A stretch of 64,000 nucleotides of DNA from Candidatus Aenigmatarchaeota archaeon (GTDB lineage: Archaea; Aenigmatarchaeota; Aenigmatarchaeia; CG10238-14; SCSR01): NCBI GenBank assembly GCA_018304615.1, contig JAGVVV010000009.1:45160-109159 (forward strand), in the 5' to 3' direction. The notes under the pieces were generated by a model. The model had not been told where the DNA came from and did no database searches. It was given only the letters and a program-made list of their open reading frames with translations. The position numbers were made by a program, and so were the translations under genes. Shown here in pieces: positions 20,570 through 61,856 of the stretch (positions within the stretch are counted from its first letter, which is position 1; each line of letters opens with the position of its first letter).

Positions 20570-20578
20570 CAAGAAGAA

Positions 20579-20601: not shown

Positions 20602-20633
20602 TCATAATTATTTCTCAAATCAGAAATCTAATT

Positions 20634-22295: not shown

Positions 22296-22502
22296 AATAA
22301 ATTATATAGTATTATTAAACTAAATTCTGAAAGCATTGGTAACTAGAAAAAATCTAGGTATGTATCTTCAGGTATTTTGAGGTATCTACATTTTTCAAGG
22401 AAATATATATTATCAGGAAAGATAAAATTTAAATCGTGCCAAGTATCACTTATCGGTGTATCTTGTTCCTTGTAACTTGTTCAAGAAGATTTGGATATCT
22501 GC

Positions 22503-31011: not shown

Positions 31012-31129
31012 TGGGACAGGCGAGATTTGAACTCGCAACACCACGCTCTTCAGGCGTGTTCGAGCCAATTCATCATTGGTTGCTCTCCTTAACCTCATTA
31101 GAGCGACGATCGGGTTGAGCTACTGTCCC
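31012..31129 (-). tRNA. tRNA-Phe(GAA) with about 45 extra nt in the D-arm region (probably two non-canonical introns)
   Basis: GGGACAG-TA-GCTC...[62 nt where 17 are expected]...-CACGC-CTGAAGA-GCGTG-GTGTT-GCGAG-TTCAAAT-CTCGC-CTGTCCC-A; 118 nt; exact splice sites not resolved by hand. Confidence 0.7.
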
Positions 31130-37783: not shown

Positions 37784-37868
37784 GCCACGATAGCTCAAAG
37801 GCAGAGCAAAAATAGAGCTTAACTGCCCTGTAAGCAGTAGGTTGAGGGTTCAATTCCCTCTCGTGGCT
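37784..37868 (+). tRNA. tRNA-Thr(UGU) with about 13-nt non-canonical intron at the same site as tRNA-Thr(CGU); apparent C33
   Basis: GCCACGA-TA-GCTC-AAAGGCA-GAGC-A-A[AAATAGAGCTTAA]CTGC-CCTGTAA-GCAGT-AGGTT-GAGGG-TTCAATT-CCCTC-TCGTGGC-T. Confidence 0.7.
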
Positions 37869-42197: not shown

Positions 42198-42228
42198 TCT
42201 TTAATTGAACATAAGTGAATTTCAATTT

Positions 42229-43053
42229 ATGGATGTTGTAGAAAAAACTGTCCGTGACATTAAATCGATAAAAGTTCAAGGAGCTTATCACATTGCAATT
42301 GCAGCCGTCAAGGCGTACATGAAGGCTAAAGACAAGAAAAAGGCTGTGAAAAAACTCGTAGCTTCACGGCCGACTGAACCGATGCTAAGAAATTCACTGA
42401 TGTATGTGGAGAAAATGGGTGGTGGTAAAGAACTCCTAATGAAACTCGAAGAAGATTTAAAAAAAATTATTGAATACGGCTCTGAAAAAATAAAAGACGG
42501 GATGATTGTTTATACACACTGTCATTCTTCGATTGTAAATGACATTTTAATTCATGCAAAAAAATCTGGAAAGAAGTTTGAAGTTCATGTTACTGAGACA
42601 AGACCTTTTTTTCAAGGAAGATTAACTGCGAAACAATTGTCAGCTGCAAGAATTCCTGTAACTCTTTTTGTTGATTCTGCTGCAAGATTGGCCTTGAAGA
42701 AAGCAGATCTGATGATGATTGGCGCTGATGCGATAACAGCAGAAGGTTATGTCATAAACAAAATAGGAAGTGAGTTGGTTGCAGATGTTGCAAACAATTA
42801 TCAAATTCCAGTTTTCGTGTGCACTCATTCGTGGAAGTTTGATCCTAAGACAATTTTCGGTTTTGATGAGGAGATTGAAAGGAGGGAAGCAAAAGAAATT
42901 TGGAAGAATCCTCCGCGTGGAGTAAAGATTAGTAATTACGTTTTCGAGAAAGTTAATCCTGAAAAATTGACTGCGATAATTTCAGAGTTGGGAATTTTCA
43001 AGCCTGCTACATTTATAGTAGAAGTGAGAAAAAGTTACGGTTGGATGAATTAG
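42229..43053 (+). CDS. e2b2: ribose-1,5-bisphosphate isomerase (eIF-2B alpha/beta/delta family)
   Basis: ATG at 42229 preferred over the TTG at 42205; HCHSS, VTETRPFFQG, GADAITAEGYVINKIGS motifs; RuBisCO and AMP phosphorylase lie in the same window. Confidence 0.7.
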   Translation: MDVVEKTVRDIKSIKVQGAYHIAIAAVKAYMKAKDKKKAVKKLVASRPTEPMLRNSLMYVEKMGGGKELLMKLEEDLKKIIEYGSEKIKDGMIVYTHCHSSIVNDILIHAKKSGKKFEVHVTETRPFFQGRLTAKQLSAARIPVTLFVDSAARLALKKADLMMIGADAITAEGYVINKIGSELVADVANNYQIPVFVCTHSWKFDPKTIFGFDEEIERREAKEIWKNPPRGVKISNYVFEKVNPEKLTAIISELGIFKPATFIVEVRKSYGWMN

Positions 43054-45695: not shown

Positions 45696-46511
45696 TTATA
45701 CCTGAACAGAATTTGAAGCTCTGATACTTGCGTCAGGCAAATCGCAGATGAGGCCTATGTAATATGTAGTTCCAGGGCTCAATCCTGTGAACGCGCATGT
45801 TCCTGAATAATCGGTGCTAGAGCAACTTTTCGCACCTGGAGAAGTTGCTACAACTCTGGATTGTCCGCTTGTCAGAGCGTTCGGGCATGACCAATTACAT
45901 GATATGCTGGTTCCATCGCTGCCCTTGTTGCATGAAACAGATGCAGAACCTCCACCGGTGCCTCCTGAACTACCTCCCGTACCTGTAGTCCCGCTGCATG
46001 GAGAATTGGAATTGAATCCATAGTATGTGAACCAATTCTCATCAGTCTTCAAGTTGCAGGTTCCCTGATCAGGGAATATCTGTTTTACTTTCTGATTAGC
46101 TTTAGTCACATCCTGATAACTTTGGTAGTATGCCGAGCACAATGTCTGCACGCAATCTTGTGGTATGAGTTTTCCGTTGTCAGTTACACATGGAAACATG
46201 TTCATGCAATAAATGGCATTCTCACACGCCTTGAAGCCTAGCAAACCTTCTGAATCGATAGAATCAATTCTACCATTCCTGTTCAGATCTGTATCACCTG
46301 TCAATTTTGTTGAACACCATTTGACGATGTTCCCTTCTTTGCAGAGCTGATCACAACCCTGCTTGAATTCCCCGTACTGGAGAGATTTTCTTACATCACT
46401 CAGACCTCCGAGTCCGCTTGTCTGATTCAAAAATAATCTGATGACGACGAAAGCTACTACAAGTAGTATCAAAAGCCCGATTATCATTTCAAGACTCATT
46501 TGTCCTTTCAT
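45696..46511 (-). CDS. type IV pilin-like protein with EF-hand-like Ca loop and FN3/Ig-like C-terminal domain
   Basis: 271 aa; MKG-QMSLEMIIGLLILLVVAFVV leader; DLNRNGRIDSID loop; G/S/T linker; FTGLSPGTTYYIGL. Confidence 0.6.
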   Translation of the reverse strand: MKGQMSLEMIIGLLILLVVAFVVIRLFLNQTSGLGGLSDVRKSLQYGEFKQGCDQLCKEGNIVKWCSTKLTGDTDLNRNGRIDSIDSEGLLGFKACENAIYCMNMFPCVTDNGKLIPQDCVQTLCSAYYQSYQDVTKANQKVKQIFPDQGTCNLKTDENWFTYYGFNSNSPCSGTTGTGGSSGGTGGGSASVSCNKGSDGTSISCNWSCPNALTSGQSRVVATSPGAKSCSSTDYSGTCAFTGLSPGTTYYIGLICDLPDASIRASNSVQV

Positions 46512-46518
46512 ATTCTCA

Positions 46519-47592
46519 CTAATCGATTGGTCTGCATTCTTGCCTTGTCACATCAAAGCTATCCCAGAAACTCCAAACAAGTGGCTGCAAGCCTTTTGAT
46601 GAAGGTATGTTAAACTTGTTATCGGTGAGTTTGAAGTTGACCAAGACTCCGCCTAGACTGCTTCCTGTTTGTGCGGAGACGATTTTTCCACCCAGCGAAT
46701 CAAAAACATTTGTCTTCAAACCAGAAGCTGAAGTTTTTTCATAGCAGAGATTGTCAGCAAATGTAGATTTCTGGCATGGAGTATTCAAACATGCAACAGG
46801 ATTTGCAGTGTCAAGACATTTTATTTCATAAGAGCATTTCACATACTGGGGATCCTCTTTGAATAATTCTTCATAGTGTTTGCATACATTCTGGATTGCA
46901 ACTTCAATCTTCTGCGGCATTGATGTAGGACTGGTGCATTGATCTCTTATGGAAGAGAATATCACTCTGACTGGAAGATTATTTTTTGTATCGTCATAAA
47001 GTCTGTAATATATCCACCAGAACCTGTTATTTGTGTTGTCAACCGCCAAATCACCTGAATAGGTTACAGAAGCAGGACTTGTAACTGTAATCACTCCACC
47101 TTGAGTCGCAGTTGATTTGAACGACTCGCATCCTTGAGAACTTCTCTGGTTGCACGCATCCTTGCCATAATCGTAGATTCCATTACATTGATATGGAGAG
47201 GCGGTAACACCGAGCTGCGCAATCTGGCTGTCTTTCAAACCTTTAAAGTATGTCTGCAAGTAGACATTGGATGTGTTACTCATGGAAAAATGAACTTCAT
47301 TTGATTCTGGAGGAACTGGCTCGTTGTTGCAATACCAAAATGTTCTAGATGCCTGACTTCCACCATTTGCTGCTACCTCAAGTGATGCGCTTTGAGTAGA
47401 GTAAGACAAATCCTGACTCAAGAATCTCTTCGCAGTTTCGAGTCTGGTAATTGCAATGTCTTTTGGTCCGACATTTGAAATTGTGCCGGCGAACTGAGTA
47501 CCGGATGAAAGATTGTTATAAGACCATACAGAGACCATCAAGACTCCAATCAGTGCAATGATTACGATTGTGGCATATGCGATGCCTTTCAT
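46519..47592 (-). CDS. type IV pilin-like protein, large ectodomain (hypothetical)
   Basis: 357 aa; MKG-IAYATIVIIALIGVLMVSVW leader; multiple Cys pairs. Confidence 0.55.
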   Translation of the reverse strand: MKGIAYATIVIIALIGVLMVSVWSYNNLSSGTQFAGTISNVGPKDIAITRLETAKRFLSQDLSYSTQSASLEVAANGGSQASRTFWYCNNEPVPPESNEVHFSMSNTSNVYLQTYFKGLKDSQIAQLGVTASPYQCNGIYDYGKDACNQRSSQGCESFKSTATQGGVITVTSPASVTYSGDLAVDNTNNRFWWIYYRLYDDTKNNLPVRVIFSSIRDQCTSPTSMPQKIEVAIQNVCKHYEELFKEDPQYVKCSYEIKCLDTANPVACLNTPCQKSTFADNLCYEKTSASGLKTNVFDSLGGKIVSAQTGSSLGGVLVNFKLTDNKFNIPSSKGLQPLVWSFWDSFDVTRQECRPID

Positions 47593-47629
47593 AAAATAAG
47601 TATGGTTCGAGGGGGGTATAAAAGTTTAC

Positions 47630-48910
47630 TTAGGCCCATTCATAGATATTTGCTGTGGTGTATACTCCTGCAACTGCGACTGGTACAGGAAAGTTGACAG
47701 CCCTGATGTTTTTTGTTCTCTGTGCAATTTCATATCCTGCTCTGTTCCCTGCTTCAAGAGCTCCAGTTCTTTCTGGAGTCACTTTCTCGATTACATCCTT
47801 AAGGGCGCTAGCCAGGTCGGATCCTTTGCTCAGATCGTACATCTGCCCTCCGGTTGCAGTCGCCATTTCTGTCATATATTGCGTGACAAGTCCGCTGCAC
47901 TGGCATTGTAATTGCGTAAAGTCATGATATGTTTGACCTTGCCAGATTACGCAGATGTTACATTTAGCGTCGCAGTTTGAACACGATGGGCAGCATCCAC
48001 TCCCTGGATCGGCCTTTATCGGAAATGCAAAAACTCCGTTCTTTTTAGCGACTTCGATTCCTCTGAGAAGGCTGTTGTGCTGTTCGACGTAGCTGCTCGG
48101 AGTGCTCGCACAACATCTTGGATTGCCTGTGTCAAGTCCGCATTCACTGCCTTCAGGAACTTCATCAGAAATTGGGATGACCACTCTCACGCTGAATTTC
48201 TGCCAGCCTTCAATAGGACCTGCTTCAATTGCGCATGCAGTTCCATGTCCCCAATCTTCGGAAGGATCTCCTCGCCTCTTGTCTTCGCATTGAAGTCCTC
48301 CAATGTTAGAACATCTCAGATACTGAGATTGAGGGAACTTGTCGCAAGAGATGACATAAGGTTGGCTGGGATTAGAACCTATTCCGCAACAAGGACTGCC
48401 GCCTTCGAGCAAATAAATCGTTGCAGTCACTCTTTTGCCTGCAGCTCTAAGGTCACTTATCAAACCGGGCAAAACTTTTCTGAGATTCTCAACGTCATCA
48501 CACAAACTTGAGGAAGTGTCTTGAATGAAAATAATTTGGATTGCAGCTTCAATCTTCGGATAGGGAACTCTCATATACCAGTGGTCTTTCCCATAAAGAG
48601 CATCAAGTCTCCAAGTGATTTCCTGAGGAACATCCACGTAACTGATTGAAGGTCCGAAATCTATCGTGTCATTTCCGATGTATGCAGCGATCCCTACCAA
48701 CTCTTGTAGAGATTTTCCACTCTTTGATTCTGTCATTGAAAAAAGTGCGTTAGCGCCAGCACTCACTCCTTCCCTCTCGTGTCTTTCAGCTAGGGTGAGA
48801 ATGGTTTTTCCAAAACTTCCTATGCTTGTAGTCCTCAAAAGAATAATCACTGCGATTATTGCTATAGCAAGCATGACAAAACCCATGACCTCAAATATTT
48901 GCCCTTTCAT
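47630..48910 (-). CDS. type IV pilin-like protein with von Willebrand factor A domain
   Basis: 426 aa; MKG-QIFEVMGFVMLAIAIIAVIILL leader; MIDAS IIFIQDTSSSL (DxSxS) and VVIPISDEVPEG; Cys-rich insertions. Confidence 0.6.
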   Translation of the reverse strand: MKGQIFEVMGFVMLAIAIIAVIILLRTTSIGSFGKTILTLAERHEREGVSAGANALFSMTESKSGKSLQELVGIAAYIGNDTIDFGPSISYVDVPQEITWRLDALYGKDHWYMRVPYPKIEAAIQIIFIQDTSSSLCDDVENLRKVLPGLISDLRAAGKRVTATIYLLEGGSPCCGIGSNPSQPYVISCDKFPQSQYLRCSNIGGLQCEDKRRGDPSEDWGHGTACAIEAGPIEGWQKFSVRVVIPISDEVPEGSECGLDTGNPRCCASTPSSYVEQHNSLLRGIEVAKKNGVFAFPIKADPGSGCCPSCSNCDAKCNICVIWQGQTYHDFTQLQCQCSGLVTQYMTEMATATGGQMYDLSKGSDLASALKDVIEKVTPERTGALEAGNRAGYEIAQRTKNIRAVNFPVPVAVAGVYTTANIYEWA

Positions 48911-49659
48911 TTTACCACAAGACTCCCCTGCAAATAACTTATCGTCCAGACATAATCACCTGGTGCTTTGATGTCCTTGATAGCAAGAGGGCAAGACATG
49001 ACTCTGCACGATTTTTGTTTAGTTCCGCTGCAGAGCTCGTTTGTAGATTTGTAATAGCTGAGTGGGAAACTTGTGTGTATGCCAAATGATGTGGCATTCA
49101 GTCTCCCGTTTCTAAACAAGTCGCACGACCAGTCAAGAGCGCCTGCTATGTTCTCCAACTCTCCGTTGACAAGATAAATGTAAATGTTGCCTGGAATGAC
49201 ATCCTTGTCAGAATATCTGATTGCAATTGGCATAGAGGTGTTGATATCATTCTTGAAAGCAGGACCTGTTGAAAAATTCTTGGCACCGAAAGACCAAATC
49301 TTAGATGGAGTCTGTGGATCCTGATTAATCTCGACGACAGTCGCCCTCCATCCGAAATTATAATTTCTCGCACAAGGAGGTTCGATATTTTTGAAATCGG
49401 AGGCCATCTGTTTCAATTTTGTCACGTCGACGATGTTGGCATAGAGTCCATCAGTCGCAGGAGATCTGTAAGCAAGGCAATCTTCCGAATTTGCAAGAAT
49501 GAGAAGGATGTTCGTGGAAGTGCTGATCAGGTTCAGAGTTTTTGAAGCCTGCCTCTCCTTTGCGATGGATTCAGAAATCGAGCTATACAAAAACAAGAGC
49601 AATGCTATTGTCATCACCAAAGAAATCGGTTTCAAAATGTAAGACATCTGGCCTTTCAT
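48907..49659 (-). CDS. type IV pilin-like protein (hypothetical)
   Basis: 250 aa; MKG-QMSYILKPISLVMTIALLLFLY leader; ATGA overlap with the downstream gene. Confidence 0.55.
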   Translation of the reverse strand: MKGQMSYILKPISLVMTIALLLFLYSSISESIAKERQASKTLNLISTSTNILLILANSEDCLAYRSPATDGLYANIVDVTKLKQMASDFKNIEPPCARNYNFGWRATVVEINQDPQTPSKIWSFGAKNFSTGPAFKNDINTSMPIAIRYSDKDVIPGNIYIYLVNGELENIAGALDWSCDLFRNGRLNATSFGIHTSFPLSYYKSTNELCSGTKQKSCRVMSCPLAIKDIKAPGDYVWTISYLQGSLVVK

Positions 49660-51648
49660 TCAAGCACCTGGTATGATACATTTGAAACCTTGAGGCACGC
49701 CTGCCAATGCGCACAGTTCGTCAATATGGCAATCTACATTCGTCTGCTTGCATCTAGAGTTTGAAGGATTCCAATTTCCGCCGCACCTCACACCTGGTGG
49801 AACTGCGTAACCACTTTTTCCGTCAGAACTTATTCCATCGTTTAGAGCGTACAATCCCTTGTCATTCCACCAAATGCACATGACATCACAGTCTGTTTGA
49901 TCTAGGAAAGTCACAAATTGGCCTGTTGCATCAAGTCTCAACCATCTGTTGGCGTTTCCATTGCATTCATTCGGCCACAATCCGGGTTGGTTTTGCAAAT
50001 CGGGATCACATTTCATTACTACGAATGCATGCCTTCTACAATCTCCGGCAATGTCAAAAGTTGTGTAAGCGTCCTTTGCAGGAACACCGAGAGTCCTTAG
50101 GACTGACAACACTGCAGAGGCATGGTCTGCACAGTAACCAACTCCGCAGCATTCGCTTCCGATATAAGTTGCTCTGTCGTCAGGACATTCTGACAAACAG
50201 CAACAAGTGTAATCCTCTCTTTTGTAGTTCTCGTTTGCGGATATCGTGAAACCAGCAGGCTGAAGTCTTTGGCAGGCTCTGATGTATCTACTCGCATCGA
50301 AAGCCCAGCCTTCAGGTGTGCGAGCCCTTATTGTTTTTATTACTTCGTTGATATCCCAATTTCTTCTGTCCAAGAATTTCTTAACTTCTGAGTCGCAGAT
50401 GGAGATTGTTCCAGGCTGCCAGCTTGGCTTGTCTCCTGTTCTGGTACCTCCTTGGAAAACATCTTCATAGCAAGCGGATGAAGTGAAAGGTCCGCCTGTC
50501 TGGCATGATGGTTGTGTTGCTTGACCGCAATCCTGAGGACAAGTGTAATTTGTCTCCCATTTTGTCTTGTATCCTTCAGGCCACCCGTATTGTGTGCCGG
50601 GTCTCCACTCGCACCTCCCATTACCACAGCAGTCTTTCCTGCAAATATTATCGCCAGGGCATGCCACAAGTCCAGCACAGCAAGGGTCTGATCCTGTTTG
50701 ATTTTCTTTTGTACAAACATTCTGGCATGCACGTGAATCTGGACAGTCAGGGTCGCAGATGTTTTTTGAATCTTTACAATCCAAGTCGCAGATACCGTCT
50801 TTTAATAAAGTTATTTTAGAAGGAGTGGAAATTGTAGGAGTTGAGGCTGTTGTGTTTATACAACCTGTGTAACATTTTCCGTCTTGTACTTTGTATTTGA
50901 CTCCATCTTTATCTATTATTTTACTCTTGGCAGGGCAGTCTGGATCGCAGTAACCTGTTTTGCTATTGGGATATTGGTCGTAACAATCTAAATCACAAAC
51001 TCCTTTTTTCAATCCTTCGCAATCAGGACTGCAAATGCCATCTCTTTCATTTTCTTTAATGCAATTCTTCTCGCACACACCTGTCTGGTATCCTCTATAG
51101 CAATTTTTGTCACAGATGCCTGGATTTTCTTTTGCGCAGAATGGGTTGCATACGCCAGTGGAGTTGTCATTCACACATTTTGTATCACACTTATTTTCCA
51201 CATTGCATTCGGGATCGCAAATGTTATCATTGGTATTGCAGGAACATGTCTTGTTGCTGATATAGACGCTGTTGTCATTGACGGTCTTGACTATGCAGAG
51301 CGACTTGGGATTTTCAAATGAATAGGGACCGGATTTAATGAGGCTTGAAAAGAATGTTCTGACTGAATTCTTGTCGCCGTATTTTATTATGAGTGCTTTC
51401 TGATCGATGTCTAATCTGAATCTGAGACCTTTTGGAATGTCTATTTGCATTTGAATATTTCCTGCTGTTGCTGCAGCCCTATCTATAGAAGTTGAAACGT
51501 CTCTACCGAGAGCCTCGAAAACAGATTCGTAAGTTCGCTGGTTCTGTTGAGAGAAGACAAGTTGAACTACAAGGACGATGAGAATGAAAGAGATGAGAAT
51601 GGCTGTAGTCTCCAACATTGTCTCGGACAGTATTACAGACCCTTTCAC
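49660..51648 (-). CDS. type IV pilin-like leader fused to G-(I/V)-C-D-x-x-C repeat array and transglutaminase-like cysteine protease core
   Basis: 662 aa; GTG start with GAGGT 6 nt upstream; MKG-SVILSETMLETTAILISFILIVLVV; about 12 repeats (GVCNPFC, GICDKNC, GVCEKNC, GICSPDC, GVCDLDC, GYCDPDC, GICDLDC, NICDPDC...); C-terminal GYCADHASAVLSVLRTLGVPA ... RRHAFVVM ... WLRLDATG (Cys-His-Asp). Confidence 0.65.
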   Translation of the reverse strand: MKGSVILSETMLETTAILISFILIVLVVQLVFSQQNQRTYESVFEALGRDVSTSIDRAAATAGNIQMQIDIPKGLRFRLDIDQKALIIKYGDKNSVRTFFSSLIKSGPYSFENPKSLCIVKTVNDNSVYISNKTCSCNTNDNICDPECNVENKCDTKCVNDNSTGVCNPFCAKENPGICDKNCYRGYQTGVCEKNCIKENERDGICSPDCEGLKKGVCDLDCYDQYPNSKTGYCDPDCPAKSKIIDKDGVKYKVQDGKCYTGCINTTASTPTISTPSKITLLKDGICDLDCKDSKNICDPDCPDSRACQNVCTKENQTGSDPCCAGLVACPGDNICRKDCCGNGRCEWRPGTQYGWPEGYKTKWETNYTCPQDCGQATQPSCQTGGPFTSSACYEDVFQGGTRTGDKPSWQPGTISICDSEVKKFLDRRNWDINEVIKTIRARTPEGWAFDASRYIRACQRLQPAGFTISANENYKREDYTCCCLSECPDDRATYIGSECCGVGYCADHASAVLSVLRTLGVPAKDAYTTFDIAGDCRRHAFVVMKCDPDLQNQPGLWPNECNGNANRWLRLDATGQFVTFLDQTDCDVMCIWWNDKGLYALNDGISSDGKSGYAVPPGVRCGGNWNPSNSRCKQTNVDCHIDELCALAGVPQGFKCIIPGA

Positions 51649-51695
51649 AGCACGACCTCTTAGATAATTTTGATTGTGGTATATAATATTGGTGC

Positions 51696-52256
51696 CTATT
51701 GAGAAGTTGTAGTAGTCGTTATCTTTTCTCCGATAGAACGTTTTGCAGTTATGTCAACGAAACTGAAATCTGTCTTGTTTATAAGAACTTCATATTTGAA
51801 GACTGGCGAACCTTCTGATAGTCTCGCAATAAGTGAGGCAAGATCGGATTTTTGAGATGGGGTTCCGAAGTAAGTCATATTCACACTGCAAGAGAGAGGT
51901 TCACATCGAGGTATGTTTTCCTCAGCGAATTTAATGCAAAAGAATTTTCCAATGGCCATTGAACCAGAAGAGATGAGCACAGAAACTTTTGCTGGCGGTG
52001 GTTCGTCGCTTACATTCGAAATGTAAATAGCTGTCACTGATTCTGGCAGTGCGATCTTGTATCTGTAGATTTCTCCGACTCCTCCTTTGAAGCAGACGTT
52101 TTTGACTTTGAAATAAATGTCGGCGAAGTTCTCAATAGCTATTTCTTTCTGAGTAGAGCTGAGCTGGTCTAGAACAAGTTTGGATCCAAAAACTATTACA
52201 ATAATGGCAAGTACGACACTCATCACGATCCAAATCCATGCAGCTACACCCTTCAT
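51696..52256 (-). CDS. type IV pilin-like protein (candidate structural pilin; paralogue of the N-half of 56315-57466)
   Basis: 186 aa; MKG-VAAWIWIVMSVVLAIIVIVFG leader; KVKNVCFKGGVG...ALPESVTAIY...GKFFCIKF parallels TVNALCEGRPG...VFPDSVSIVY...GKFACLKF. Confidence 0.55.
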   Translation of the reverse strand: MKGVAAWIWIVMSVVLAIIVIVFGSKLVLDQLSSTQKEIAIENFADIYFKVKNVCFKGGVGEIYRYKIALPESVTAIYISNVSDEPPPAKVSVLISSGSMAIGKFFCIKFAEENIPRCEPLSCSVNMTYFGTPSQKSDLASLIARLSEGSPVFKYEVLINKTDFSFVDITAKRSIGEKITTTTTSQ

Positions 52257-52294
52257 ATGTATAATTTTGTTGCAGATTGTTATAACTTTAGAAT

Positions 52295-52756
52295 CTAAGG
52301 TTCAGGCGTGCCGACGAAAATGGCCCTTTCATACCCATCATAAGAAATCGTGAAGTTCTTATCACTAGTAATATACCACTTGACTTTGTCCTGATTTGGA
52401 TACCTCTTCGAAACACAGGAACTACAATCTCCAGATGTGCAATTGTTATTAGGAATGTTCTCGCAGTTTAGAGATTTGGTGACGTCAAATTCTGTAATCG
52501 TTGAATTAGAAATTATGTTAATGTTCTTGCAAACAGAAGATTTGGGGCTGAGACCATTTCTGTTTTGATCCCAACATGTCACTATGTAATTAGCAATAGT
52601 AGACGCGATTTTCTGTTTGTCTCCAGAAAGATTCACCTCAGAAGAATTTTTGAATCCACCGGTGAGTTGGAAGACTAGGAGTAAGAGAATCAATGCGACT
52701 GCTATTCCGGCAATAATCTGAAAAAATTCGGGGATTGTTTCGAGTATGCCTTTCAT
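52295..52756 (-). CDS. small type IV pilin-like protein, CW-motif family
   Basis: 153 aa; MKG-ILETIPEFFQIIAGIAVALILLLLVF; IANYIVTCWDQ; C-terminal ISYDGYERAIFVG. Confidence 0.55.
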   Translation of the reverse strand: MKGILETIPEFFQIIAGIAVALILLLLVFQLTGGFKNSSEVNLSGDKQKIASTIANYIVTCWDQNRNGLSPKSSVCKNINIISNSTITEFDVTKSLNCENIPNNNCTSGDCSSCVSKRYPNQDKVKWYITSDKNFTISYDGYERAIFVGTPEP

Positions 52757-52757
52757 C

Positions 52758-53309
52758 TCAAGACCATTTCTGTTTTAGATTTTCATATTGATGGGAATTT
52801 TTGCGCCTCAGCAAAAGAAAGACCAAAAGAATAACTGCGACAATCAAAATAGCTAGATAAATGTAGATTGAATAAGATGATGATGTCTGAATAGGTTTTG
52901 ATACGCCAGGTAAATCTTTTGAGAAAATTATTTTTGACTCGTGTAATAACTGCAATTTTGTCGCGCCTTCAGGTGCCGGAAGTCTGAAAACCAAATTCTT
53001 GCTGGTATCATTAAATTCAACGGGTTTTCCTGAAGTGGATATCCCATGACCACTGAAACCTATTAGAAATTCTTTCTCGAATAATACTGAATTGGAGTCT
53101 GATACCAGTCTTATCTTATATCCAGTTCCTAACAAGTTCTCTACGTTCGGAGTTCCTTGGGCTTCTCTAAGTTCATTCAGTTGAACTGAATCGTTCTTGT
53201 AAACGACGATGTCTAGAAGGAATATTTTCCCATAATCTTGGGCTGAGATAATCTGAAAAGAAATGAGAATGAAGATTATGAAAACACTTAATTTTTTCAT
53301 TGTCCACAA
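52758..53309 (-). CDS. type I membrane protein (Sec signal plus C-terminal TM), hypothetical
   Basis: 183 aa; MKKLSVFIIFILISFQIISAQD signal; C-terminal IYIYLAILIVAVILLVFLLLRRKN anchor. Confidence 0.5.
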   Translation of the reverse strand: MWTMKKLSVFIIFILISFQIISAQDYGKIFLLDIVVYKNDSVQLNELREAQGTPNVENLLGTGYKIRLVSDSNSVLFEKEFLIGFSGHGISTSGKPVEFNDTSKNLVFRLPAPEGATKLQLLHESKIIFSKDLPGVSKPIQTSSSYSIYIYLAILIVAVILLVFLLLRRKNSHQYENLKQKWS

Positions 53310-55261
53310 CCATCCATATAATCTTTTAGTTCATGCTCTTTTAACCATTTGTAGCTTCCGGCAGAATATTTTGTTTGTGCACCATAGCACATCATCCAGC
53401 CATCCTGATAACTTCCTGTGCATGCCCCTACGTTTGGATTCGGACAGTAACTGTCTTGCCCCACTCCCCTACATGCACATCCAATCATTGCGCAATAGTT
53501 TGGATTAGAAAGTGGAGAAGGATCACATTCATGACACAAGTTCTGAGAATGACCGATCTCGTGCAAAACAGTATTTGTATAGCTCGCCCAAGTGACGCTC
53601 TGGTCTGAAGGGATGTCTCTGGCTGCACCTATACACATACCACCGCTGCCGTCACATGATATCGGACCACGCTGGAAAAGACCGACGACCTTATTGTAAA
53701 CAGTTGCATATTTGCTTTTTTTGGCACAAGCTAAGACATTGTCATTGCAAAGGGGCCAAAGATAAGGACACGAAACACTACATTCGCCTGGTTCGACGAA
53801 CACTGCTTCTACTCTGCTCTGCGGATTTCGACATTCACTCAACGGACTGAGTTTAATAAATAAGTCGACGACTTTTTGAGCACTGGCTTTGAAGGATGCT
53901 GCCTGACCAGAGCTGTAATCTATAGGAACAAATAGTAATTTGTAAGTTTTTCTAAAGAAGCAATCCGTCCCGTTCCAGATTTTTCCTTCGGGACAACAAT
54001 GGCCTGAAGTGTCGCATTGAAGATTCGTCGCACATTGGCTGTTGCAGTTACATTTGCTCTTCTCTTTCAAATCTTTATTGACAGTACATCCGAGTGAGTC
54101 AGCTTTTCCATCACTTGGGCAGCAGACAAAATTGAAATCGCTGCAAGTTGTTCCTGCTCCAAGGCAATCTTTACTGCAAGACTGGCAGTTTTCACTGGCA
54201 GTTGTATTGCAGATTCCATTCCCACAACATTCAGTTCTTGGACCCTGAGCTCCTGATGGGCAATCTGGATCATTGTCGAATACGGTACAGGAAGGCGAAC
54301 ACCAGCTGTTGCAAGTCTTATCACAAACGAAACATTTCGAATCGGTGGTTCCGTTGGGATTTCCAGGATAAACAATTCCGTTGCAGTCAGGATCGCAGAT
54401 ATTTTTATCTTTTATACAATCCTGATCGCAAATTCCGTCTTTCACGCCGTTTGAATTTGGGTCACAAATACCTCCATACTTCTGCCTGAAAGTCTGGTCA
54501 GTCAACTTCAACCATTCGCAACCGGGGTCATAGGCTTTCAAAGGATTCAATCTATCTGAATAACAATCTGGATTGCATTTTCCATCAGAAATTCTTTTAT
54601 TGGAATCATCTATGTCAACCACTCCATTGTTGTTCGAATCTATGCAAGCAAGATTGCAAGGAATTCCATGGCGCTGGCCATCGTCACACACAGGATCGCA
54701 TACTCTCTTCAAAATGCAACTTGCATCACAGATGTTGTCTGTCGGATCGCAACCCTTGATGGCTCTGGCTATGAAAGTGTCTGGAGAAGGAGATCCCTGC
54801 TGCCACATGTCTACGAAATCAAAAGTTTTTAGGGGATAGTCACCTTGGTTTCCTATAATGATCAGTGCTCCCACACCGAGAGGCTTGGTCAGATTGTAAA
54901 AAATTAAATTTCCTCCGCCTGCGATACCTGAGAGTTTACTTATCCTGATTATGTCTTCTTGGGTCAACGAGAATGTGAGAGAAACATTTGCGTGAACGTC
55001 TCCGCACTGACCTTGATAGACAGCCTGAAGAAGTGTCTGGAAGTCTTGTATTGAAATTTCCTTACCAGCATATGCCTCGCAAATGTTGTAAGGGGATGTT
55101 TGAATGACAGTACTTACAAATTTCTTGAACACATTTCCAAGTTGAGTTGGAATCTGTGAGCCCAGAGTTAATCCTTGAGATTGTATGATGAGAATTGAAA
55201 CGATGATGATTACAAGAAACAGGGCTATAATTCCAATCAAGTTAATTGTATCAGCATCCAC
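53297..55261 (-). CDS. signal-anchored cysteine-rich protein with G-I-C-D-x-x-C repeats, EF-hand-like loop and metzincin-spaced zinc protease motif
   Basis: 654 aa; GTG start overlapping the upstream TAG by 1 nt; MDADTINLIGIIALFLVIIIVSILII; DSNNNGVVDIDD; GICDPNS/GICDQDC/NICDPDC; VLHEIGHSQNLCH (HExxHxxxxxH). Confidence 0.6.
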   Translation of the reverse strand: MDADTINLIGIIALFLVIIIVSILIIQSQGLTLGSQIPTQLGNVFKKFVSTVIQTSPYNICEAYAGKEISIQDFQTLLQAVYQGQCGDVHANVSLTFSLTQEDIIRISKLSGIAGGGNLIFYNLTKPLGVGALIIIGNQGDYPLKTFDFVDMWQQGSPSPDTFIARAIKGCDPTDNICDASCILKRVCDPVCDDGQRHGIPCNLACIDSNNNGVVDIDDSNKRISDGKCNPDCYSDRLNPLKAYDPGCEWLKLTDQTFRQKYGGICDPNSNGVKDGICDQDCIKDKNICDPDCNGIVYPGNPNGTTDSKCFVCDKTCNSWCSPSCTVFDNDPDCPSGAQGPRTECCGNGICNTTASENCQSCSKDCLGAGTTCSDFNFVCCPSDGKADSLGCTVNKDLKEKSKCNCNSQCATNLQCDTSGHCCPEGKIWNGTDCFFRKTYKLLFVPIDYSSGQAASFKASAQKVVDLFIKLSPLSECRNPQSRVEAVFVEPGECSVSCPYLWPLCNDNVLACAKKSKYATVYNKVVGLFQRGPISCDGSGGMCIGAARDIPSDQSVTWASYTNTVLHEIGHSQNLCHECDPSPLSNPNYCAMIGCACRGVGQDSYCPNPNVGACTGSYQDGWMMCYGAQTKYSAGSYKWLKEHELKDYMDGCGQ

Positions 55262-55821
55262 TAGACGGCCACCTCGATTCTATGAAAGAAAGAATTGTAA
55301 TTTATGAAAACCGAAGTATCGTTTAAATTCACTCTTCCACCTGTCCAATAGATTTTATTTTGTTTTCCGCAATCATAGGCTTGATTCTCCAAATCAAGCA
55401 AGTTGTTCTCAAGGAATGAGCAGTAACCTTTTGATTTGAGGACATCCGTTATTTCTTTCTCTCCGAACTCAGAAGGAACATTTTTAATCAGAATCTCGTA
55501 GCACTGAAAAGATATTCCTACTTTCCCACTGTTGGTTTTTTCCTTCCAGCACGTCCACACATAATCCGCAATCTTAACTCTCAAGTCTGAGCTTGAAGTA
55601 GGCCTTAAGATGACATTTTCTTTTGTAGGAGTGATGTTGCATTGAGATACAGAAGGTTTCAAAGATTGGGGTAGAGGGATTACAAGAATTATTTGATAGA
55701 GTTTGCAGATGGCTGGACCTGTGTAGTTGGGAAGAAACATGTTCATCGCGGTTAAGATTATCCAAACTCCCACTAGTGCAATCAAAACATCTGCGACGAG
55801 CTTGAATGACATTCCTTTCAT
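55261..55821 (-). CDS. small type IV pilin-like protein, CW-motif family
   Basis: 186 aa; MKG-MSFKLVADVLIALVGVWIILTA; IADYVWTCWKE; C-terminal INYNSFFHRIEVAV. Confidence 0.55.
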   Translation of the reverse strand: MKGMSFKLVADVLIALVGVWIILTAMNMFLPNYTGPAICKLYQIILVIPLPQSLKPSVSQCNITPTKENVILRPTSSSDLRVKIADYVWTCWKEKTNSGKVGISFQCYEILIKNVPSEFGEKEITDVLKSKGYCSFLENNLLDLENQAYDCGKQNKIYWTGGRVNLNDTSVFINYNSFFHRIEVAV

Positions 55822-56276
55822 GGAGAGCTCACTATTATTTGGGGACCTAACTCTTTGAATTCTATCTTGACTATTTGGCTGTTGAAGTTTGCGGTTATCG
55901 AAGTTCTTTTCTTCACATCAGAAGGTAGGCTGCTCAGTATTGTGTTAGCATCTGCACTGAAGTATGGAGGTTTTCTGGCTAGCAACAAGTAACAAACCGT
56001 ATCCTTCTGATCTGGAACTGGAAGATTTGAGTTGCAGCTGTCACAGCTTTGAATATACGCGGAGATTTCAGAAGATATGAATGAATCCTTCTCAATCGGT
56101 TTCTTATCTGGACAATTGGCCTCACTTGGGCAATTGAAGAACTTGCAAAGGAATTTGTTTATCGAAGTCTGGATGTCCCTGGAGAAATTCAAAATCAAAC
56201 CTATAATGACTGCAACGGTTACAAGTAGAATGATTATTCTGAAAACAAACTCCAGCGCGAGAGCTGCTCCCTTCAT
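55818..56276 (-). CDS. small type IV pilin-like protein (related to the CW-motif family)
   Basis: 152 aa; MKG-AALALEFVFRIIILLVTVAVIIGLIL; ISAYIQSCDSC; C-terminal VKIEFKELGPQIIVSS. Confidence 0.55.
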   Translation of the reverse strand: MKGAALALEFVFRIIILLVTVAVIIGLILNFSRDIQTSINKFLCKFFNCPSEANCPDKKPIEKDSFISSEISAYIQSCDSCNSNLPVPDQKDTVCYLLLARKPPYFSADANTILSSLPSDVKKRTSITANFNSQIVKIEFKELGPQIIVSSP

Positions 56277-56314
56277 AATTTAACTAAGGATTTCTTATAA
56301 TAAATTAGAATAAC

Positions 56315-57466
56315 ATGAAAGGTATCGCTGTCTGGATATGGCTCATAGGCGGGATAATTGTCGGAATGATCATGTTTGTTCTTTTTTTCCAGTTGATGAG
56401 CTACCTGACACTTAGCAGGGCAAGGGAGGATGCAAGACAGAGTTTTGATGATTTAACCAGCACTGTCAATGCTCTGTGCGAGGGTAGACCTGGTATTCAG
56501 TCCTCGAAGAAGTTTGTCTTTCCAGATTCTGTATCAATAGTTTATTCAACTTCAGATCCGAAGACGTATGTAGAGAAAAATAATCGTACTTATGGAAAGT
56601 TTGCTTGCCTTAAATTCCAAAAGGAGCAATTTTGCGAAGGAGTGAGTTGTGATTTAGAGTTTCACCCAATAAAGGCGGAGGAAAACCTTTTAGGAGTAGT
56701 AGACACCTTGTTAGGAAGATCAAGCTACCAAGAATATCTGGTGAAGTTGACCAAGACAGAATGTGGGGTGTCTGCTTTGAACGTTGGAGAAAACCCATCT
56801 TCAACATGTGGGCTATGTAAAACTGTATCTTTAATCAGATGCCAGACGTCAGTTATCTTGGGGCTTGTAAGTAGAGACGTCCTTGTCATAACAGACATGT
56901 CAAGACTGAAAGAATGTTGCACTATAGATAACAGTATAATCAAGTTACTCAATAATGCGGCAGGTTATCTTGGTGGAAAAAAGATTTTGATAGTTTGGGA
57001 ACTTAACCAGTATGATCCTTCCTCTCAATCTAAATTGCCTATAATAAATTCATTGAGCAGTTCTGGATTCATGGTCGGTTTCCTGAGGCACACAACTCAA
57101 TTGACCGATGACATTTTGAAAAATTACGATCAGCTCTGGCTTTTCCGACCAGGCTGGTGCCTCCCTCAAATAGTTGAATGTGGTGGGTCAGTAACTTGGA
57201 GCAATTCAGAAATAAATGCAATTGGAAACTTTCAAAATCGTGGAGGAAAGATTTTCTTGTTTACTGACACTTCTGCTGGAAATGTCCAAGACCAAGACAT
57301 GGTGAACAAGATACTAAAACAGCTGAACACGACTGCGACTGTCGATGGAACAACTGTGTGCGGACGCGGAGATCAAACCGTCATGACAACAGATATTACA
57401 AAGAACTCTGTAACTAAGGGTTTGGACAACTTTAACGTCACTGCTGCGACGAGAATAATTTGTTAG
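56315..57466 (+). CDS. type IV pilin-like protein with extra C-terminal alpha/beta domain; only plus-strand gene in the locus
   Basis: 383 aa; MKG-IAVWIWLIGGIIVGMIMFVLFF; N-half paralogous to 51696-52256; C-half KKILIVWELNQYD...YDQLWLFRPGW...GGKIFLFTDT (weak ThuA/GATase1-like impression). Confidence 0.55.
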   Translation: MKGIAVWIWLIGGIIVGMIMFVLFFQLMSYLTLSRAREDARQSFDDLTSTVNALCEGRPGIQSSKKFVFPDSVSIVYSTSDPKTYVEKNNRTYGKFACLKFQKEQFCEGVSCDLEFHPIKAEENLLGVVDTLLGRSSYQEYLVKLTKTECGVSALNVGENPSSTCGLCKTVSLIRCQTSVILGLVSRDVLVITDMSRLKECCTIDNSIIKLLNNAAGYLGGKKILIVWELNQYDPSSQSKLPIINSLSSSGFMVGFLRHTTQLTDDILKNYDQLWLFRPGWCLPQIVECGGSVTWSNSEINAIGNFQNRGGKIFLFTDTSAGNVQDQDMVNKILKQLNTTATVDGTTVCGRGDQTVMTTDITKNSVTKGLDNFNVTAATRIIC

Positions 57467-58044
57467 GCAATTATCACAATCTTGTTTTGTACAGTATCGT
57501 ACTTAATCAAAATCAGCCGCTGATCGTTTATTACATTTCCTGAAACTTGCCAGACTATGTTGTCACTCCCTCCGCAGTTCCCAGAATAGTCGGAGAGTTG
57601 TCCAGTTGCATTGATAATCTTGGAATTTTCAAGGACGTCGCAGCCATTTTCTCTTTCAATGATCTGTGTCATGTATGACTCTGTAACAGGTCCGAATGAA
57701 TCCTCTACAAACAGGTTGTAGCAGACAGTAGAATTAGTAACCTTAATTCTTTGGCCCTGCCAACATGAAATTGCAAAAGCAGCAATCAATCTTGCAAACT
57801 CTTCTTTGTTCTCTGCTGATTTGTCGCATCCCTGTCTGCAGATGGAAATTGATGTAACAGGCTTGTTAAGTCCTTTACATAAATCTGAAGTTTGCTTCAA
57901 TGTGTTCTCATAAAAGTAGCAGAAAGTCTTTTTCATTGTATCTGAGAACGGACCGACTAAGAACATTAGTAAGACGATGATTCCGACAATACCTACAGTG
58001 AGGTATCCGATTGTGTTTAATTCCAGACCTTTATGTCCCAACAT
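57463..58044 (-). CDS. small type IV pilin-like protein, CW-motif family
   Basis: 193 aa; MLGHKG-LELNTIGYLTVGIVGIIVLLMFLV; IAAFAISCWQG; C-terminal IKYDTVQNKIVIIA; overlaps the platform gene by 14 nt. Confidence 0.55.
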   Translation of the reverse strand: MLGHKGLELNTIGYLTVGIVGIIVLLMFLVGPFSDTMKKTFCYFYENTLKQTSDLCKGLNKPVTSISICRQGCDKSAENKEEFARLIAAFAISCWQGQRIKVTNSTVCYNLFVEDSFGPVTESYMTQIIERENGCDVLENSKIINATGQLSDYSGNCGGSDNIVWQVSGNVINDQRLILIKYDTVQNKIVIIA

Positions 58045-60193
58045 TTGAAATTCCTCCTAGGGTATCTGTGTCGAAAAAGCTTCCAGAGATTACTATCCCG
58101 ACAACAAGGACAATCGAATAGAAGATTAAGGCCATCATCACGCCCTTTCCTATCAACACATTTCTTGTAGTCTTGTCGAAACCATTCTTGATTCCGTTCA
58201 AGAAGTATGATAGGATGACAACTATTTCGAGCATGTAGATGCCGACAACCAATTGGAAGACCGTGGCAGGAATGACTTTTTCTATGCTAGCAAAACTTAG
58301 AATCTGGCCGAACTGGACGGTGCCGCCATGGATGAAAGAGCCTGACAAATTGAACGTTTCTTCGATGCTCTTCATGAATTCAGATAATTTTCCCAAAAGT
58401 CTGATTATGAAGGTAGCCATACCAGCTACGATACCTGTTATGAATGGGGCGATGAAACTTGACTGCAGTTGGATTGCAGCTGAAACTTCATCGAGCAGTT
58501 CTTTCAGAAGATTCTCAACATTCTTTGTTTTCATCAGGAAGGAAGAGATTGTTTTCGATGCAGTGGAGAGGATGATGGAAGACTTTTCAGCGGCAGAGAC
58601 GATTATCGACATGACATCTTTTATCAGGAACGATGGATACCTTCTCATCACTCCATATTGCTCGTCAAAGATTGCCCTTTTTAGTGTCATGCCGAGTTCG
58701 CGAATGTTCTTCTGGATGTTAAGGAAAAATATGAACATGGGCGAGTCTTGAAGCTTGTACTGCCTGTATTTGTCGAGGGTTTCTTCAAGAGCCGTTTCTA
58801 TAGGAACGCCAGACGAGAGAACGTCTCCCAAACGGAAAAGTCCTATCTGGAATTCGTCCTCTATGAGCTTGATGTCGTTTCTTATCTTCAGCCTCTGATA
58901 GCTGGAACCGTAAAAGTAAATCACCAATGCGAGACCCATCCCCCAGATACCGCTAAGACTGTAGAATGTGAATGAAAGAGCGTTGTCATACTCAGCTTTC
59001 ATTTCAAATCTCCATCTGTCAGCGAAATCAGGAAGGTCTTTAACAGCAAAAAATTTTGATGTCAGGACGTATAGATAGGTGAAAGTTGGGATGAGCAAAA
59101 AGAACATGATTATGAGTGAGATCGGCAATATAGGAACTAGATATTTTTTTCCTGAGATTTTCAAAATCAATTTTCCTTGAGGAGGGAGATCAGGATGATG
59201 AGAAATGTCTGGATATGCAAAGGCTCCAGGACGTTTTGCAATTGTCCTTCTAAGATAAAAATAATTCAGAAGGGGAAGGACGACAATATATCCGAAAATA
59301 AGGAATCCCGGGTTTAGGTCTTCGCTCAAGAATATAGCAATCATCGGGAACATGACCAAACCCATGATCGGAAATGTAATTCCCATTGTGTGAATAAGCA
59401 TTATCGGAGTTCTCAGTTCTCTGGAGTAGTCTTTCATTTTTTCATAAGTAGAATCAAGTACGAAATTAAGAGTCTTGTCAAGAGTCTTCTCCCTTGCCTG
59501 CTCGTTGGTCTCGAGAGCGAGGGCTTGGATGAGGTTCATGGCTTCGACGAATTCCTTGTCCCACAGCAGCCATTTTTCAATCTTAGAGCCGATTGCCTGA
59601 TTAATCGTATAGTATTTCCTTATTTCTACGTCCCAGATTATTTTTTTCAGATCTTTTCCTATCGGTCCTGAGGCATGTGCGGCTGCGAATCTTATCGCTC
59701 CTTCAACTTGGGGATTGAGTCTGAGATAGATTACCATGTATAGAATTACCTTAACTGTCTCGTCATTCGCTTTGATTTTTGTTACTGCAGACAAGTAGGC
59801 AGGATAGGTGTAGAACAGATAAGCGAAGATGAAAGGGAAGAAAGGTAAGAAATATCCCAAGAACGGAAATACTAAACTCAGAGGGATGGAAATTCCTAAA
59901 CCGATAATTATTGTGAATACTGTGAAAGAGAGGACCTCGCTAGGCGTCACATCGATGTCTGTGGTGAGCAAATGTTTCGACAAAGAGTTCGAAATGCTCT
60001 GTGGGGCTTGCATTTTCAGAGTTTTGCCCGCAAATTTGCATCCACTTACGAAGAAGCCTGTGAATCCGCCTTCGTCTTCAGGATGCTCCTCTTGAATGAA
60101 CGTCTTATAATCTTGAGAAATCCACTGCTTTGCCTCGCTTTCTACTTGCTCTTCAGAAGGTATTTTCTTGAAGAAACGGTCCAAGAAACTCAT
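58031..60193 (-). CDS. polytopic membrane platform protein, FlaJ/TadC/PilC-like (two T2SSF-type repeats)
   Basis: 720 aa; at least 9 TM; two cytoplasmic helical segments (AIRFAAAHASGPIGKDLKKIIWDVEIRKYYTINQAI... and RLGDVLSSGVPIETALEETLDKYRQ...), each followed by TM clusters, as in type IV filament platform proteins. Confidence 0.55.
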   Translation of the reverse strand: MSFLDRFFKKIPSEEQVESEAKQWISQDYKTFIQEEHPEDEGGFTGFFVSGCKFAGKTLKMQAPQSISNSLSKHLLTTDIDVTPSEVLSFTVFTIIIGLGISIPLSLVFPFLGYFLPFFPFIFAYLFYTYPAYLSAVTKIKANDETVKVILYMVIYLRLNPQVEGAIRFAAAHASGPIGKDLKKIIWDVEIRKYYTINQAIGSKIEKWLLWDKEFVEAMNLIQALALETNEQAREKTLDKTLNFVLDSTYEKMKDYSRELRTPIMLIHTMGITFPIMGLVMFPMIAIFLSEDLNPGFLIFGYIVVLPLLNYFYLRRTIAKRPGAFAYPDISHHPDLPPQGKLILKISGKKYLVPILPISLIIMFFLLIPTFTYLYVLTSKFFAVKDLPDFADRWRFEMKAEYDNALSFTFYSLSGIWGMGLALVIYFYGSSYQRLKIRNDIKLIEDEFQIGLFRLGDVLSSGVPIETALEETLDKYRQYKLQDSPMFIFFLNIQKNIRELGMTLKRAIFDEQYGVMRRYPSFLIKDVMSIIVSAAEKSSIILSTASKTISSFLMKTKNVENLLKELLDEVSAAIQLQSSFIAPFITGIVAGMATFIIRLLGKLSEFMKSIEETFNLSGSFIHGGTVQFGQILSFASIEKVIPATVFQLVVGIYMLEIVVILSYFLNGIKNGFDKTTRNVLIGKGVMMALIFYSIVLVVGIVISGSFFDTDTLGGISNVGT

Positions 60194-61544: not shown

Positions 61545-61856
61545 ATGCGAACTGGAATCTATGTTGTCATCATTCTTCTGTTTTCTATCGCTGCAGGTGT
61601 ATTTTTGGTAGACTTTTTGAAACAAAAAAATCCTATTATAGAAATTCCTGCTGAAAATTCCTGCTCATCTGATGGCGAGTGTGATTGGGGGATTACTAAC
61701 TGCTGTCCAGAAAATGCAGGTGCCAAATGGAATTGTTTGAATGCAGACAATCGACAAGCAAGAACTTGCCCGTCATCGGTGATATGTCCGCAAGTTATTT
61801 CTCCAAAACCAAATAAAACATGTGTATGTATCAAAGGAATGTGCGAAACTAAATGA
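61545..61856 (+). CDS. small membrane-anchored cysteine-rich protein (10 Cys)
   Basis: ATG at 61545 (MRTGIYVVIILLFSIAAGVFLV) preferred over the track start at 61500, which overlaps rbcL; ectodomain CSSDGECDWGITNCCPEN...CLN...TCPSSVICP...TCVCIKGMC; stop overlaps the deoA ATG (ATGA). Confidence 0.5.
   Translation: MRTGIYVVIILLFSIAAGVFLVDFLKQKNPIIEIPAENSCSSDGECDWGITNCCPENAGAKWNCLNADNRQARTCPSSVICPQVISPKPNKTCVCIKGMCETK

Follow-up and report, generated by a model that had tools for sequence, protein, structure and literature searches.

Architecture of the gene and its protein

We analysed a stretch of 64,000 nucleotides (nt) from a Candidatus Aenigmatarchaeota archaeon (assembly GCA_018304615.1, contig JAGVVV010000009.1, positions 45,160 to 109,159 of the forward strand), referred to here as the window. 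It contains an array of genes for proteins with short pilin-type leaders. The subject of this study, hereafter the target, is one of them, an open reading frame (ORF) of 662 amino acids (aa) at 49660..51648 on the minus strand, whose product joins a pilin-like N-terminal domain to a long stalk of cysteine repeats and a head with a transglutaminase-like (TGase-like) core. A preliminary description of this DNA, made from the letters and the ORF translations, had outlined such a protein without naming a strand. The ORF is present at exactly the coordinates proposed, and so are the GTG start with GAGGT at a 6-nt spacing, the MKG followed by a hydrophobic helix, every quoted heptad of the short-repeat array (in which we count 13 CxxxC units), the CCGNGRCEW at aa 340-348 and the head motif at aa 500-576. 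The N-terminus reads MKGSVILSETMLETTAILISFILIVLVVQLVF, and the gene ends in TGA, which the ATG of the next gene directly adjoins. Its parts are the following.

51655..51659, minus strand: Shine-Dalgarno-like GAGGT upstream of the GTG, with the 6-nt spacer CGTGCT
51640..51648, minus strand: leader Met-Lys-Gly of three residues, Lys at -2 and Gly at -1 of the predicted prepilin-peptidase site
51247..51648, minus strand: pilin-like N-domain, aa 1-134, a long N-terminal helix followed by a seven-stranded beta domain
50611..51246, minus strand: Cys-rich stalk, aa 135-346, with 13 CxxxC units and 33 Cys, terminating in CCGNGRC
50467..50610, minus strand: conserved linker, aa 347-394, with W356, W364, E365, D373, C374 and C382 invariant
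49663..50466, minus strand: C-terminal head, aa 395-662, a conserved FLDRRNWDI subdomain and the TGase-like core
49930..50187, minus strand: TGase-like (papain-like) core, aa 488-573, with the predicted triad Cys506/His540/Asp573
50131-50133, 50029-50031 and 49930-49932, minus strand: codons of the predicted triad residues Cys506, His540 and Asp573, respectively

Two database gene calls place the start of this gene at Met11. We rejected Met11 as the true start and favour the GTG because the pattern MKG-x3-(I/L)SE, which lies upstream of Met11, is kept at the protein level in about 40 homologues and because the GTG has its own Shine-Dalgarno motif. AlphaFold2 models of the full target (mean pLDDT 89.3, above 90 in the head) and of the separate N-domain (pLDDT 87.6) agree on a 52-residue helix at aa 9-60 followed by seven strands.

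The transglutaminase-like head

The motif CCGVGYCADHASAVLSVLRTLGVPA...CRRHAFVVMKC...RWLRLDATG at aa 500-576 contains the predicted triad, namely Cys506 in GVGYCADHA, His540 in RRHAF and Asp573 in RWLRLDAT. The residues follow in the order Cys-His-Asp, with the Cys inside GxCxxxA and the Asp soon after a conserved Trp. An alignment of 50 homologues showed all three to be invariant (50/50), together with G504, D508, W569 and T575. Pfam family PF01841 (Transglut_core) matched aa 488-573 of the target (E=4e-4, 21.1 bits) and 32 of the 50 homologues at E<=0.01, the best of them at 8.2e-8. Several homologues carry precomputed PF01841 matches and a protein of the target's 90% cluster is named 'transglutaminase domain-containing protein' by NCBI; the transglutaminase domain call itself is already present in GenBank.

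Structural comparison pointed the same way. The best PDB neighbours of the head model in Foldseek were structures of LapG, a transglutaminase-like cysteine protease (E 0.035, probability 1.0, target TM 0.39-0.48), with the pseudomurein endoisopeptidase PeiP as a lower-ranked match (E=0.8), and the structural matches in a viral library included phage COG3672-type transglutaminase-like proteinases and a phage 'transglutaminase'. Compared with the PDB, a head profile matched LapG (E=0.024) and the transglutaminase TgpA (E=0.49), in both cases over the GxCxD..A and His motifs. Membership in the LapG family was rejected, as PF06035 had no match at E<=0.01 in the target or in the 50 homologues.

The cysteines offer a further indication. 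Their total is odd in 47 of the 50 homologues despite a range of 49-83, and the number within the head is odd in 45, a parity that would fit one free catalytic thiol with the remaining cysteines paired. We hold with high confidence that the head is a TGase-like enzyme domain with an intact triad, as the preliminary description had proposed; the retention of Cys, His and Asp among orthologues, which it had put forward as a check, extends to every homologue aligned. Neither a missing match to the superfamily nor a loss of the triad in homologues, which it had named as refuting, was observed. Given this triad and predicted fold, the chemistry would be that of a Cys506-His540-Asp573 enzyme, and the head would most probably be a cysteine peptidase whose substrates are proteins outside the cell.

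The cysteine-rich stalk

The target contains 57 Cys (8.6%). Thirteen CxxxC units fall within aa 144-340, most of them conforming to (G/N)xC(D/N/E/S)xxC. In 5000 composition-preserving shuffles of the target protein CxxxC occurred 4.8 +/- 2.0 times (maximum 15), against 16 in the real sequence, and the stricter [GN]xC[DNES]xxC was found 10 times where 0.19 were expected (maximum 4). The stalk cysteines are invariant across the aligned homologues. The same stalk is shared with the ORF at 53297-55261 (BLASTP 4e-9), and target-type stalks also occur in proteins whose heads are peptidases of the M64, C1, C25 and S8 families. Two isolated stalks compared with Pfam gave no match at E<=10, and on this ground the repeat could not be assigned to the TSP3, EGF, furin-like or Myxococcus Cys-repeat families. 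With its length of about 210 aa, the stalk may serve as a rigid, disulfide-stapled spacer that would keep the head off the cell or filament.

The N-terminal leader and the pilin-like domain

Archaeal class III signals are defined by a charged residue at -2 and Gly, Ala or Ser at -1, with a hydrophobic domain of some 20 residues following at once at the extreme N-terminus, and the characterised sites include KGQI and KGIS (PMC4371748, PMC3387779). Leaders of just three to four residues can be cleaved by PibD (PMC4187195). The target agrees with this rule, with M-K-G followed by SVILSETMLETTAILISFILIVLVVQLVF. The pattern [KR]G-x(1-3)-(I/L)SE is kept across the family with its Glu invariant; in the target Ser8-Glu9 are the conserved pair, and the helix is hydrophobic in its first half. 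The pilin-type leader of the preliminary description thus conforms to the published rule, is conserved in the family and is common to eleven neighbouring genes. Two homologues carry the JGI label 'pseudopilin PulG', and one neighbour in the array (45696-46511) has a weak match to PF04021 (E=0.03). Judged by its sequence, the N-terminus of the target is probably a class III-type signal. The N-domain as a whole is pilin-like, which is not to say a proven pilin.

Exchange of heads on related carriers

The architecture of the target is repeated, with another enzyme at its end, in a second protein of the array.

53297..55261, minus strand: 654-aa protein of paralogous architecture, with a CxxxC stalk and a metzincin-like head (HEIGHSQNLCH)

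This protein has an N-terminal transmembrane helix (MDADTINLIG...), a stalk ending in CCGNGIC and EGF-like Cys modules, and its head gave weak matches to Reprolysin_5 and MMP-8. Among its homologues the N-domain and stalk are 51-58% identical and the proteins end in Peptidase_C25 or subtilase S8 domains, while more distant relatives end in M64 or papain C1 domains. The target's own modules are redistributed as well. Its N-domain can be aligned over the full length with the N-domains of P0120 and P0054, two proteins with M64 heads that start M-x-KKG, and one M64-headed protein with a target-type N-domain belongs to a Woesearchaeota metagenome-assembled genome. The target stalk matches the stalk of P0121, which bears a papain C1 head.

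Carriers also occur alone. Headless, stand-alone versions of the N-domain, 144 aa long and with a common natural C-terminus, were found, one of them at the target's locus position in another genome, upstream of genes for 426-like and 357-like proteins. The 186-aa pilin-like neighbour of the target (51696-52256, minus strand) ends at a poly-Thr linker, where its orthologue in locus L001 (8512-9975, 487 aa) runs on into a GH43/GH32-like beta-propeller and its orthologue in L010 (2918-4174, 418 aa) into a zincin-like head; the copy in the window looks like a headless carrier. A search with an N-domain alignment profile returned five short proteins, missed known full-length members and did not map all the heads attached to target-type N-domains.

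The carrier module thus exists by itself and the head grafted on it varies among homologues. These loci use pilin-sized carriers with interchangeable hydrolase heads, and the heads in this lineage comprise TGase-like, metzincin, M64, C25, subtilase, papain and GH43-like domains. Because the heads swapped onto related carriers are hydrolases, a peptidase (hydrolytic) role is favoured for the TGase-like head. In this lineage such carriers bear enzyme heads as a rule, and the statement of the preliminary description that enzymes with pilin N-termini are unusual was overstated in view of this frequency, of the bacterial modular pilins and of the Sulfolobus bindosome.

The gene cluster and its conserved neighbours

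The target lies among the following features.

45696..58044, eleven ORFs on the minus strand and one on the plus strand (56315-57466): array of 12 ORFs with an MKG leader (in one case MLGHKG) and a hydrophobic stretch
58031..60193, minus strand: TadC/PilC/FlaJ-like polytopic membrane protein of 720 aa, heading the array
48907..49659, minus strand: next gene, 250 aa, with an MKGQ leader, whose ATG abuts the target stop; it follows the target in distant loci too
47630..48910, minus strand: third gene of the block, 426 aa, with an MKGQ leader and a DTSSS motif resembling a metal ion-dependent adhesion site (MIDAS), overlapping the 250-aa gene by 4 nt

The eleven minus-strand ORFs are tightly packed, with overlaps or gaps of 0-47 nt. 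The block formed by the target, 250-aa and 426-aa genes recurs at 35-41% identity in loci L002, L003 and L008, and in distant loci it is accompanied by genes for 357-aa, 271-aa and TadC-like proteins. The 720-aa protein is named 'type II secretion system F family protein' by NCBI; its Pfam match to T2SSF is below the cut-off (E=0.0066), the PDB sequences contained no match to it, and an orthologue 46% identical occurs in the distant locus L003. NCBIfam gave no usable match for ten proteins of the locus. The DxSxS motif of the 426-aa protein is kept in its orthologues in L008 and L010, and from this motif the protein probably includes a vWA-type module, for which Pfam, NCBIfam and the PDB sequences gave no supporting match. 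In this it is reminiscent of bacterial minor-pilin complexes, which have vWA-bearing partners.

Some further proteins around the array deserve mention. The 383-aa MKG-leader protein at 56315-57466 is encoded on the plus strand, opposite to the rest of the array, and its N-terminal region has a paralogue in the 186-aa protein (51696-52256), the same L002 and L003 proteins matching both. A second small cluster of MKG-leader genes (106, 148, 190 and 147 aa), adjoining a gene for a 731-aa protein, lies on the same contig past the window end (L009, 17008-21484); these proteins have normal pilin size and could include a major subunit. On the other side of the array, an 817-aa protein (43050-45503, minus strand, extending to about 45610) contains 11.3% Cys and poly-Thr linkers. 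Its frame continues past the first ATG/GTG/TTG in the upstream direction and codes there for the hydrophobic, signal-like stretch FILLFAISFSLLALSA, which is homologous to the N-terminus of the L001 orthologue; for both reasons the true start is probably non-canonical or mis-set. In the distant Aenigmarchaeota locus L003, a Peptidase_C25 protein of at least 794 aa (21146-22361) adjoins the TadC-like gene.

Comparison with known systems

According to the survey by Raynaud et al. 2021 (PMC8179133), bacterial modular type IV pilins consist of a small pilin module and a grafted functional module, in 264 architectures; they are widespread and include predicted peptidase modules (S74, M26), and exposure at the tip was proposed for them. 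The target resembles these proteins, such as PilB and PilC of Streptococcus sanguinis, in its N-terminal module with a graft and in the presence of a probable vWA-bearing partner. It differs from them in being archaeal with a 3-residue [KR]G class III leader, in the long CxxxC stalk between its modules and in an N-domain for which no match to solved pilins was detected. In the 32.5 kb of supplementary text of that survey that were searched, no transglutaminase module was found.

A link between TGase-family surface peptidases and archaeal type IV pilus (T4P) loci was reported by Makarova, Koonin and Albers 2016 and left unexplained (PMC4858521). Going by their description, arCOG02164, arCOG09555 and arCOG03450 are like the target in that a TGase-like predicted peptidase is tied to an archaeal T4P-like locus. 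Unlike these separate surface peptidases of methanogens, the domain of the target shares one chain with a pilin-like N-terminus and a stalk, and it belongs to the DPANN archaea. The older genomic link now takes the form of a physical fusion, a single protein that can be expressed and assayed.

LapG and the other bacterial proteins of the BTLCP group (COG3672; PDB 4fgo, 4fgq and 4u65) share with the target the aligned GxCxD..A motif and His and the Cys-His-Asp triad, and their action outside the cytoplasm on surface proteins resembles the action proposed for the head. LapG, a small and soluble enzyme of the periplasm, has a Ca2+ site and LapA as its specific substrate, whereas the head of the target has 268 aa, is rich in cysteines predicted to form disulfides and is tethered. 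The pseudomurein endoisopeptidases PeiW and PeiP (PDB 8z4f) also have the fold of a transglutaminase-like cysteine protease; they are phage-encoded soluble lysins that act on the archaeal cell wall, and the match to the target is weak (E=0.8).

The sugar-binding proteins of the Sulfolobus bindosome are large non-pilins with class III leaders, and their surface localisation needs a dedicated T4P-like pair of an ATPase and a TadC protein (PMC4371748, PMC4858521). Unlike the target, they bind substrate and are not enzymes, and they have neither a stalk nor a separate pilin-sized N-domain. In the literature we found no paper combining DPANN, pilin and transglutaminase, and no description of the target's fusion, of its stalk or of head swapping in DPANN archaea.

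Possible roles of the target

We regard the target as a modular pilin-like surface enzyme in which carrier and stalk bear a TGase-like peptidase head and which works together with the 250-aa and 426-aa partners, a reading to which we assign a probability of roughly 55%. To its actual incorporation into a filament we would give somewhat less than even odds. The MKG leader and hydrophobic helix would act as an archaeal class III signal, as the sequence rules and the context suggest, and the protein would enter the membrane and be handled by a type IV pilus-like machinery, to which the TadC-like gene heading the locus points. There the N-domain of about 130 aa would be an autonomous pilin-sized carrier module. 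The conserved gene order, and the analogy with minor-pilin tip complexes, suggest that the target would work with the 250-aa and the vWA-like 426-aa pilin-like proteins. The locus as a whole would be a kit of hydrolases for display on the surface or on a pilus, with which the cell might plausibly feed on a host's or neighbour's envelope or attack it.

A number of observations weigh against this reading. Concerning the head, the target's own PF01841 score of 21.1 is below the gathering cut-off of 23, the structure and PDB matches to TGase-like enzymes are all weak (E 0.02-0.5), and an exhaustive HMMER search that used the head by itself returned 16 representative clusters, all of its own narrow family. 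Since this single-sequence search found the own family only, the head reaches canonical transglutaminases through profiles and structure only; the matches are weak singly, yet all in one direction. Concerning the N-domain, Foldseek of its model against the PDB returned no solved pilin, the matches being at chance level (sliding clamps and Ig domains, best E=0.1), its profile found nothing meaningful among the PDB sequences, and PF04021 had no match to the target. The conserved Glu stands at +6 of the KG site (+4 in a distant clade) and not at +5, and the residue at +1 is Ser, which is absent from the experimentally characterised sites listed in PMC4371748. Finally, Pfam scans of 40 ORFs of the window detected neither a T2SS-E-type ATPase nor an A24 prepilin peptidase, and the gene-table Pfam records within 10 kb beyond the window end contained no pilus ATPase or prepilin peptidase.

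Several of these points would be accommodated by a possible, though rather unlikely, alternative, in which the target is an ectopeptidase on a stalk that stays anchored in the membrane and does not polymerise at all. The helix would then serve as an anchor, either a plain signal anchor or one of class III as in the bindosome, the stalk would lift the protease through the S-layer, and any pilus of the locus would be made from other subunits. The missing fold match of the N-domain to solved pilins and the failure to find an ATPase or peptidase nearby agree with such an anchor, and a subunit of 662 aa would be bulky for the body of a filament. Moreover, the zincin-type paralogues start with ME... 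or MD..., without the K/R-G motif, and yet have the same stalk-plus-head design, and the Sulfolobus sugar-binding proteins carry class III leaders without being pilins (PMC4371748). However, a plain anchor would not require the conservation seen in the [KR]G motif and in the invariant Ser-Glu of the helix, the gene is closely linked to those of four other MKG-leader proteins and to the TadC-like gene and keeps its synteny with them, and a pilin-sized, headless N-domain of 144 aa occupies the same locus position elsewhere.

It is improbable that the target is a housekeeping protease for the maturation or release of products of the locus, such as the pilins, the Cys-rich 817-aa protein or S-layer proteins. 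Such a role would be modelled on LapG, which releases LapA and is the best structural and profile neighbour of the head, and on the T4P-linked TGase-family peptidases proposed in methanogens; the TGase-family surface peptidases tied to archaeal T4P loci were suggested to take part in pilin processing or degradation (PMC4858521), and the position of the gene within the operon is conserved. But neither a long stalk nor an exchange with M64, C1, C25, S8 and GH43-like heads would be expected of a dedicated processing enzyme, and PF06035 matches none of the 50 homologues.

We give still less credence to a true transglutaminase that would form isopeptide cross-links, stapling the filament or cell to a partner surface or hardening its own envelope. 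The Cys-His-Asp chemistry would be the same, the Pfam family bears that name and the profile match to the transglutaminase domain of Pseudomonas aeruginosa TgpA, weak as it is (E=0.49), points to this activity. In contrast, the nearest folds are those of proteases (LapG, PeiP and COG3672), and the heads swapped onto homologous carriers are all hydrolases. Makarova, Aravind and Koonin reportedly regarded, in 1999, most microbial members of the transglutaminase-like superfamily as proteases. A catalytically inert adhesin using the fold for binding only, for which the existence of pseudo-enzymes of this fold and the adhesion context suggested by the vWA-like neighbour could be cited, is most improbable given the strict invariance of Cys, His and Asp in 50 homologues, some only 35-40% identical, and a Cys parity that implies one thiol kept unpaired.

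To return to the modular pilin-like surface enzyme, its wider meaning lies with the DPANN archaea, which are abundant, mostly uncultured and thought to live attached to hosts. Their pilus-like loci consist mostly of 'hypothetical' genes, and how they attach to and exploit their hosts is largely unknown across the field. The present locus gives a testable picture of pilin-sized carriers, a new Cys-repeat stalk and interchangeable hydrolase heads. Should filaments display these heads, the idea of modular pilins would apply to archaea as well as to bacteria and would cover, beyond binding modules, an entire set of enzymes. Extended further, Aenigmarchaeota and at least some Woesearchaeota might possess a type IV pilus-like filament whose minor or tip subunits bear exchangeable hydrolases on disulfide-stapled stalks (TGase-like, metzincin, M64, gingipain-like C25, subtilase and papain peptidases and a GH43-like glycosidase), an 'enzymatic harpoon' for opening or grazing the host envelope; this is a speculative proposal that we consider unlikely as it stands. 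If true, it would be a mechanism of DPANN-host contact without a described counterpart, used by ultra-small, host-dependent archaea.

Distribution of the family and genomic setting

A word-indexed search returned 54 relatives, 29-81% identical to the target, and those with a named source are Aenigmatarchaeota. A scan of GTDB species genomes found the family in three Aenigmatarchaeota, in one further archaeon and on one 8.9-kb contig binned with Methanosarcinales. The last, JAIWAJ010000047.1 (L008, 'Methanosarcinales archaeon'), carries the same gene block of a headed protein and proteins of 252, 441 and 367 aa. We would not trust this bin, for which the explanation is either an error of binning or a transfer of the genes into a lineage of possible hosts.

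The window is archaeal in content, with an archaeal signal recognition particle RNA and intron-bearing tRNAs, and its proteins have been deposited under a Candidatus Aenigmarchaeota metagenome-assembled genome. Four tRNA matches, at 31012-31129 (minus strand) and at 16127-16219, 15700-15785 and 37784-37868 (plus strand), are 85-118 nt long, lengths that suggest intron-containing tRNA genes. The pilus-like locus is flanked on both sides by genes of the archaeal AMP salvage pathway, with a form III RuBisCO (60248-61537, plus strand) and an AMP-phosphorylase-like protein (61853-63394, plus strand) on one side and an IF-2B-family, ribose-1,5-bisphosphate isomerase-like gene (42205-43053, plus strand) on the other; L001 has the same flanks (IF-2B and PCMT). 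A 780-aa protein at 10611-12953 (minus strand) contains an S_layer_C domain (E=8e-14) and is a candidate S-layer protein. ORFs resembling LAGLIDADG homing endonucleases were found at 909-1940 (minus strand) of the window, and several lie at 18469-21185 of the related locus L002.

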